64,000 nucleotides of DNA from Eledone cirrhosa (taxonomy: Eukaryota): assembly GCA_964016885.1 (NCBI GenBank), contig OZ024752.1, positions 26,288,001 through 26,352,000 on the forward strand, read 5' to 3'. The notes beneath the pieces were generated by a model. It had not been told where the DNA came from and made no database searches. It saw nothing but the letters and a program-made list of their open reading frames with translations. Below, one piece after another: positions 17,165 through 39,572 of the stretch. The position numbers were made by a program, and so were the translations under genes. Position 1 is the stretch's first letter; every line of letters begins with the position of its first letter.

Positions 17165-17482
17165 ACGATATTAACAAATGGAAACTATATTTATAAAACC
17201 ATATTTATTTCATTATACATATTCCAACAGTAATGGTTGCATTACTTAAAGGTATGTCAATATTTATTTATAAAACTGCTCTATATTATATTTTATCTGA
17301 TGAAAGCACACCATAATTTAACTTGGTGTCCTTGAAATATGTATAATGAAATAAATATGGTTTTATAAATATAGTTTCCATTTGTTAACATCGTATTTTT
17401 ACTCCAATTATTTGTTGACTGCTTTATATCAGTTATAAAAATATTTGCTTGTTGTATCCCAACAATTTAAATAGAACTTCTA
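17165..17482 (+). mobile_element. Family A element with 5' inverted partial copy
   Basis: 17165-17223 is the reverse complement of 17335-17394. Confidence 0.85.
17289..17353 (+). ncRNA. Minimal type I hammerhead (family A)
   Basis: TATTTTAT-CTGATGA-AAGCACACCATAATTTAACTTGGTGTCCTT-GAAA-TATGTA-TA-ATGAAATA. Confidence 0.85.
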
Positions 17483-27315: not shown

Positions 27316-27487
27316 TGTGTTTTTATTTCTCCGTCTGTTTTGACAATATAGTTGAAGACTTTGCTACGACTATACTATCAAATTATTTGATCTGCTAAAT
27401 CCGAAATATTATGTATTGGGTCCGGTTAAAACCGGGGTTCTAATCTGTCTGTGATTGTGTGTGTGTGTAAATATATATATATATATA

Positions 27488-27842
27488 GGTAAACGGAATA
27501 GAAAATGCTGACAAATTGTTCACAGTTGAAAAATGGTTTAATTAGGAATAAAAGAGTATTAGTGATTGTATGGGTTAGTATTCAGTTGTGGTTTTAAGTT
27601 TTTAAGAGCAAAGCAAACAGCACGGACACTCTATCTCAAAATTATTTTTGAAAAGCATTTAGAAATGCGCAACCGGTAAAAACTTAAAAAACTTAAAACC
27701 ACAACTGAATACTAACCCATACAATCACTAATACTCTTTTATTCCTAATTAAACAACCATTTTTCAACTGTGAACAATTTGTCAGCATTTTCTATTCCGT
27801 TTACCAATATATAATAACTTGTGTGTTACACCTCTATTCTTT

Positions 27843-27847
<5 letters not shown>
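27488..27847 (+). mobile_element. Family K element with 5' inverted arm and variant hammerhead (27645-27681)
   Basis: 27488-27606 is rc of 27685-27805; TTT-TTGAAAA-GCATTTAGAAATGC-GCAA-CCGG-TA-AAA; relative at 62063-62470. Confidence 0.75.
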
Positions 27848-27908
<61 letters not shown>

Positions 27909-38899: not shown

Positions 38900-39572
38900 T
38901 ATACGAAGGAGCCACGGAGAAGTATAAGACCCTCATAGAACTGGACATGAAAGTAATTTGCCCATTATACAGGAGCAAATCATGGAATAGCTTAGATAGG
39001 ACTAGACATAAGATAGGGAAAGTCACCTCATGGTACGACAACCAGAGATACCAAAGTGTCATGTTTGTGGACGCTACCCCTGGAGGGAAATTAGCTAACA
39101 GTGTAGAAAGGCCCCGAGAAAGACCCACTTTAAGATTAAGGTGGTAGAAAAGCCAGGAACCACCATAAAATCCCTGATCAGCAAAACCTACCCTTTTAAG
39201 AAAACCCACTGTACTAATAGGAAATGTATTATATGTAAAGTTAACCCCCGGATAAACTGTAAAACTAGAAACGTAGTCTATAGCATAAGATGTACAGAGG
39301 GTACTTGCAGAAATATGACAACAACATACATAGGCGAGACAGCTCGTAGCATAGGTGAAAGGATAGACCAACACTGGGGGAAACTAAAAGGACGAAAACA
39401 CGTTTCAGTACTATACGAACATGCCAGACAACAACACTGCGGTAACATAGACAACATAGAAATTAGAATAATATCTAAACATAGAAATGACCCAGCAGAT
39501 AGTCAAATCAGAGCGGCCAGCGAAAAAAGCACATTAACAACAAACACATATAAACACACACTAGTAAACTAA
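38900..39572 (+). pseudogene. PLE linker, Cys motif and GIY-YIG endonuclease (frameshifted near 39130)
   Basis: SVMFVDATPGGKLA / VVEKPGTTIKSLISKTYPFKKTHCTNRKCIIC...CKTRNVVYSIRC...YIGETARSIGERIDQH...SVLYEH. Confidence 0.9.

Follow-up and report, generated by a model that had tools for sequence, protein, structure and literature searches.

The window, a stretch of 64,000 nucleotides of Eledone cirrhosa DNA (OZ024752.1), carries two hammerhead-like motifs with GCAA where the hammerhead consensus has GAAA. Ruffner (1990) reportedly found substitutions of A13 to be strongly damaging, and the locus raises the question of whether C13 is a trait of a family or decay of single copies, and whether such a core still cuts.

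Hammerhead-like motifs with a GCAA core

Both GCAA-core motifs claimed in the initial annotation, at 27645–27681 and 62175–62210, were present as described (Table 1). The first reads TTT-TTGAAAA-GCATTTAGAAATGC-GCAA-CCGG-TA-AAA on the plus strand, and the second (62210–62175) reads TTT-TTGAAAA-GCATTAGAAATGT-GCAA-CCGG-TA-AAA on the minus strand; the repeats around them were 86.6% identical across 209 shared bases. The first motif consists of stem I TTT/AAA, the U3-A8 core TTGAAAA, a 5-bp stem II, G12-C13-A14-A15.1, the palindromic CCGG, and U16.1-A17. Its stem II does pair, as had been claimed, but the quoted 6 bp (GCATTT/AAATGC) had to be rejected because only a 2-base loop would remain; 5 bp with a TAGA loop were found instead.

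Table 1. Positions of the C13 motifs, their host insertions, and the K2 motif pair in the window
Feature	Position	Strand	Basis
C13 hammerhead-like motif, minimal type-I, subfamily b	27645..27681	+	sequence, fold prediction
C13 (sister family K2 and the hammerhead consensus have A)	27670..27670	+	sequence, genome-wide counts
Predicted 6-bp hairpin TCAAAA-TTAT-TTTTGA; pairs U3-U4-G5-A6, excludes stem I	27636..27651	+	fold prediction
ACCGGT palindrome, predicted to form stem III between molecules (dimer interface)	27672..27677	+	fold; dimer model in part of PMC4209133
5′-truncated 3′ terminal repeat (pLTR), ~40-base tail running into ORF1 leader	27605..27853	+	97.2% to full-length L067
Inverted shorter second arm of the 27605..27853 insertion, without motif	27468..27606	-	sequence
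Second C13 motif, subfamily a0, private C11.1-to-T	62175..62210	-	sequence, subfamily sorting
5′-truncated copy: GIY-YIG end, microsatellite-rich 3′ UTR, pLTR, then (TA)n	62041..63580	-	alignment
K2 inverted motif pair (61444 -, 61523 +), U3-A8, GAAA, 4-bp stems I and II	61413..61554		sequence

When the motif was compared with the type-I hammerhead, the first core box N3-UGA-N-N8-A9 with its 3-8 pair was found as U3 U4 G5 A6 A7 A8 A9. The G10.1-C11.1 pair closes a stem II of 4–5 bp that is compensated against sister family K2, and A15.1-U16.1, the UH cleavage site, and a palindromic stem III suited to a dimer (ACCGGT then A17) are all present. The second box G12 A13 A14 A15.1 is where the motif departs, since C13 stands in 11,023 of 11,163 genomic matches. 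By this membership test, the motif is hammerhead-derived and at most a putative ribozyme. In an Rfam search of the window (E ≤ 10), the 150 matches listed out of 848 included no hammerhead and were all microsatellite-driven miRNA models. This result and the AT-rich sequence might suggest a chance look-alike or an assembly artefact with no hammerhead descent. That reading is extremely improbable, because the motif and the K2 motif align letter for letter at corresponding positions of homologous pLTRs, pLTRs of Penelope-like retroelements (PLEs) are known to carry hammerheads (sections of PMC4209133), and the genome contains about 11,000 matches.

Host element

The C13 motif resides in the terminal repeat (pLTR) of a recently amplified Penelope-like retroelement. 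The element encodes a reverse transcriptase (RT) followed by a C-terminal GIY-YIG endonuclease, as in EN+ PLEs; the Pfam RVT_1 match (E 9.8e-07) scored 29.1 bits, slightly below the cut-off of 29.6, and the GIY-YIG match had an E value of 9.1e-07. EADKG and YLDD motifs were also found. CDRPNCGIC, which precedes GIY-YIG and has the CX2-5CXXC form common to Neptune and Nematis, fits either of these groups, as judged from sequence. The pLTRs are tandem or inverted, with 5′ truncation and a tail, in the PLE arrangement. The motif-to-motif distance was 4.8 kb in two copies (L066 and L067), and the insertion unit at 27468–27853 is flanked by (TA)n runs. Traits typical of PLEs, matched by the window copies, are listed in the sections of PMC8557442 used here. 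The unit at 27468–27853 was also considered as a MITE and rejected as such, its inverted arms being truncated PLE pLTR copies.

ORF1 and ORF2 lie in different frames and overlap at a T TTT TTA heptamer in the full-length copy L067 (minus strand). The heptamer was kept in 7 of the 7 copies shown (L061, L066, L067, L068, L138, L229, and L245), and the overlap is a candidate -1 frameshift site; no stable hairpin was predicted downstream of it in L067. In 11 of 30 copies (L001–L030), similarity ended 35–50 bases upstream of the core. Stopping or template switching may be favoured in this zone, in a sample biased by the requirement for the motif.

Position 13 across the genome

The genome was searched with a pattern that left position 13 free, with the reversed pattern as the control. 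The search returned 11,163 matches to the C13-family motif and none for the control, which speaks against chance; the former number counts motifs and exceeds that of insertions, because many insertions have two arms. Position 13 was C in 11,023 matches (98.7%), A in 38, and G or T in 102 (27 G and 73 T among the first 100, counted by eye). A search anchored on the flanks only gave 10,676 matches, and the first 100 of these, read by eye, comprised 98 C and 2 A. The initial annotation had taken C13 for a family trait rather than post-insertion decay, and both the 11,023 of 11,163 matches and the 98 of the first 100 flank-found copies bear this out: the genome-wide consensus at position 13 is C, and a GAAA majority was not seen. 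C13 is thus fixed family-wide.

A13 copies (38) were no more frequent than expected from ordinary mutation, for which G and T together (102) served as the measure. At seven loci (L032, L040, L048, L049, L051, L056, and L058), the A13 copy had a partner arm with C13, which identifies these A13 copies as lone mutants. A13 copies were spread over every subfamily, and private shared changes were limited to a few pairs or trios. A hidden A13 ancestor or revertant subfamily was sought among the 158 non-C matches with any stem II, and none was found in the first 100; the flank-anchored searches revealed no additional core variant family.

Eight of 24 listed runs, seven of them under other organism labels, were also examined, and no other letter was listed at position 13. 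Five of the eight are shallow (depth near 13 or lower) and may represent stray DNA, and one of these five, X14, barely covers the site; as the organism labels are also coded, the runs are not counted as evidence. Two runs under two other organism labels (X7 and X8) contained near-identical C13 repeats from at least two subfamilies, at depths of 100–600, which may equally reflect close relatives, transfer, or mixed DNA.

Sister family K2 and the origin of C13

The relation to family K2, claimed in the initial annotation, held up: the RTs are about 57–59% identical and the repeats are homologous. K2 has 11,909 exact genomic matches, the first 100 of which all had GAAA. Its inverted pair in the window (Table 1) is a natural control for the C13 motif. 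Smaller, older U3-A8 families with a different stem II (L124, L134, L125, L140, and L142) also have GAAA, so that C13 would be the derived state. In a loose pattern search for C3-G8 relatives, the control count exceeded the real count.

The K2 subfamilies differ from their consensus by 7.6, 3.4, and 1.5%, from old to young, and in the same order stems I and II each grew from 3 to 4 pairs (e.g., 61413–61554, L187, and L197), the pattern that selection on an active fold would be expected to leave. The C13 line, in contrast, lengthened stem II only. At stem I pair 2.3-1.3, K2 has C-G and the C13 family U-A, a compensated difference, and one stem II pair is G-C in K2 and U-A in the C13 family; this comparison with K2 and two outgroup copies comprised eight related rows and few events, and was matched in 1 of 500 shuffles. 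The TCAA...TTGA spacing is common to the two families.

Amplification and constraint of the C13 family

After sorting of 151 distinct C13 repeats, the distances of the subfamilies to their consensus were 3.2% (c), 2.5% (a1), 2.0% (a0), and 1.3% (b), and some copies of b, the youngest, were at 0%. Column counts left out 22 unassigned and four a2 copies, and the sample was enriched for A13 by design. C13 stood in all four subfamily consensus lines (c, a1, a0, and b). Between subfamilies, the dN/dS of ORF2 was 0.03–0.19 with dS of up to 0.136 (2–6 copies per group), ratios that point to purifying selection on ORF2. The subfamily divergences, the presence of C13 throughout, and the dN/dS values together indicate repeated recent amplification with C13.

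Could the motif then be a dead relic carried by a successful element, conserved by chance or through an overlapping DNA or splicing signal? The subfamilies cover a dS of only 0.136, and a test restricted to U3–H17 would allow this: one change in 29 positions versus 3.6 expected from silent sites of ORF2 (p 0.13). Block-level tests spoke against it. In the motif block, which extends seven bases beyond U3 on one side and seven beyond A17 on the other, 1 of 43 columns was variable, compared with 27 of 189 flanking columns (Fisher p 0.018). A stretch of 60 columns between -19 and +50, the longest to contain no more than one change, takes in the upstream hairpin strand and had a permutation p of 0.036. 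The motif block thus appears to be under modestly more constraint than the flanks, in sampled copies in which the motif was itself fixed because most loci were found by it. The sole substitution in the block and the sole loop insertion both lengthened stem II, which had 4 pairs when C13 became fixed and has 5 now; this also argues against a relic. Within and after the motif, a donor-like CCG|GTAAA in stem III is followed by TACTAAC and, some 105 bases further along, by an acceptor-like CAG (27673–27790), and K2 has a similar layout. Such an arrangement would suit a splicing signal, but genomic copies spliced from the donor in stem III gave 0 matches in either family, with one donor-acceptor pair searched per family; this absence is weak evidence because PLEs keep introns. 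Overall, we regard the relic as improbable.

RNA fold and the preferred reading

In the four C13 copies folded, stem I consisted of three A-U pairs. A UCAAAA-UUAU-UUUUGA hairpin paired U3–G5 with a predicted probability of 0.99, and stem I had a probability of 0.000 in the monomer. The active dimer lay 15–22 kcal/mol above the dimer optimum in C13 copies versus 3.2 kcal/mol for young K2. The gap was 14 kcal/mol for old K2 with its canonical GAAA, and the predicted gap does not cleanly separate C13 from canonical cores. The ACCGGU duplex was retained in the best predicted dimers, and covariation gave no support for the upstream hairpin (267 of 500 shuffles). Because A13C, an all-A-U stem I, and a hairpin burying U3–A6 coincide, cleavage is likely to be crippled. 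The initial annotation offered a tolerated variant and a dead ribozyme as alternatives; two features that it did not mention, the weakness of stem I and the predicted hairpin on U3–A6, tilt the balance toward a crippled C13 core. Free-RNA folding may mislead, since the hammerhead of a lizard PLE needed the element's protein in order to cleave.

The reading that we prefer, with a probability of roughly 0.5, is a switched-off hammerhead whose fold is kept as a structural signal in a recently amplified PLE with fixed A13C. The RNA would form two hairpins, one that buries U3–A6 and one that is stem II, together with an ACCGGU that pairs with itself, rather than a catalytic junction. The RT-endonuclease would start to copy uncut RNA some 135 bases beyond the motif on its 3′ side. 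With this starting point, cleavage in the 3′ repeat would be superfluous and would cost the RNA its 3′ end. Protein binding or RNA dimerisation would be what keeps the hairpins and the palindrome in place. Since the 3′ ends of insertions lie about 135 bases downstream, every intact genomic motif was presumably copied from an RNA that had either not been cut at the cleavage site or been joined again there. The sections of PMC11167929 used here report on a lizard PLE: insertion in vitro was unaffected by catalytic mutations of the hammerhead, the cut site was not the end of any RNA-seq read, mainly uncut RNA served as the insertion template, and cleavage required the element's protein. Core mutations generally reduce hammerhead activity, and A13 belongs to the consensus (part of PMC3088659). 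Against the preferred reading, the other core positions are intact in all C13 subfamilies and stem I pair 2.3-1.3 is compensated, as an active fold would predict.

These last points lead to the alternative that C13 is a tolerated core variant, with slow dimer cleavage once the element's protein opens the upstream hairpin. Apart from position 13, the whole core was kept in the four C13 subfamilies together with G10.1-C11.1 and the palindrome, stem II gained its fifth pair with C13 already in place, and pairs in stems I and II were compensated against K2 (in the same eight related rows, 1 of 500 shuffles). The spacing shared with K2 would suit a regulatory switch, and PLE hammerheads that are weak or protein-assisted, as well as slow natural core variants, exist in the parts of the literature cited here. 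Three defects occurring together (A13C, the all-A-U stem I, and the 6-bp competing hairpin) tell against this alternative, as do a stem I that did not improve, unlike that of K2, and the GAAA of the metazoan PLE alignment rows examined in Fig. S3 of PMC4209133. On balance we consider it possible but unlikely. Its more specific form, in which the GCAA core works in the U3-A8 background, the protein opens a conserved OFF hairpin, and the dimer cleaves, is doubtful; if true, it would represent a genome-scale exception at an 'invariant' position and a protein-gated ribozyme switch missed by GAAA descriptors.

Insertion junctions

Insertion junctions were examined for a genomic footprint of cleavage, which would be a pile-up of 5′ junctions at cut-site position 1.1. 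A first count by eye hinted at one for K2, with the 5′ junction at this position in about 9 of 41 loci. In a less biased search, in which 30 K2 loci were scored by script and five internal indels were removed, junctions were spread from -19 to +2 and 4 of 25 lay at position 1.1, one of the four being also an internal deletion. The 5′ junctions of the C13 family were blurred by TA/A microhomology at the cut site, and subfamily b was outside the less biased search.

Comparison with known systems

Minimal dimeric PLE hammerheads and the U3-A8 variant have already been published (Cervera and de la Pena 2014, PMC4209133). In the sections of that paper used here, metazoan PLE type-I hammerheads, including the U3-A8 Schistosoma Cercyon, resemble the C13 motif in their pLTR position, short stem I, G10.1-C11.1, U3-A8 covariation, and tiny palindromic stem III implying a dimer, and their families likewise include thousands of truncated copies and inverted pairs. 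The families listed there have GAAA, whereas the present one has C13, no extra base between A9 and G10.1, three A-U pairs as its stem I, and a strong hairpin on the first core box.

PAc, the Anolis Poseidon element (Frangieh et al. 2024, PMC11167929, in part), shares with the C13 element a pLTR hammerhead, tail extension, AT-rich targets, and probably the use of uncut RNA as the insertion template. The PAc hammerhead has a C3-G8 core and cleaves with protein, and its dead mutants were engineered and assayed in vitro, whereas the change in the C13 element is natural and fixed in a family amplified in vivo. U3-A8 is also among the natural core variants of Perreault et al. (2011, PMC3088659). In the text sections used, departures in the GAAA region are rare (U13a insertion) and A13C is not among the named variants, which are rare single sequences in contrast to a family with 11,000 matches. 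The CX4CXXC before a C-terminal GIY-YIG, the DKG motif, the (TA)n targets, and tandem and inverted insertions recall the Neptune and Nematis EN+ PLEs in the sections consulted of Craig et al. (2021, PMC8557442); the C13 element differs in its separate upstream ORF1, joined via the conserved heptamer. No report of an A13C hammerhead was found in the running text of the papers searched.

The dispensability of PLE hammerhead cleavage in vitro has already been published (PMC11167929, in part; this is the one direct test among the sources consulted), and the role of hammerheads in PLEs was stated to be unclear in the corresponding section of PMC8557442. K2 and the C13 family form a natural matched pair: the two sisters are alike in copy number and age, K2 has GAAA and stems that improved, and the C13 family has GCAA fixed throughout. 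As the C13 family, with about 11,000 matches, is as widespread as K2, the pair would be a natural test of the need for cutting. If C13 is dead, the family would supply in vivo evidence that large-scale retrotransposition can do without cleavage and that the fold serves a second function. If C13 cleaves, the hammerhead consensus would need widening, and GAAA-based searches would undercount ribozymes.

Other elements in the window

A third hammerhead family occurs in the window at 17297 (+), 28916 (+), 51631 (+), 38580 (-), and 1834 (-), and has a canonical CTGATGA/GAAA core, an 8-bp stem I, and a TATRTA stem III. GIY-YIG-like ORF remnants of other Penelope-like families were recognized by eye from translations at 49759–50739 (-) and 39099–39572 (+).
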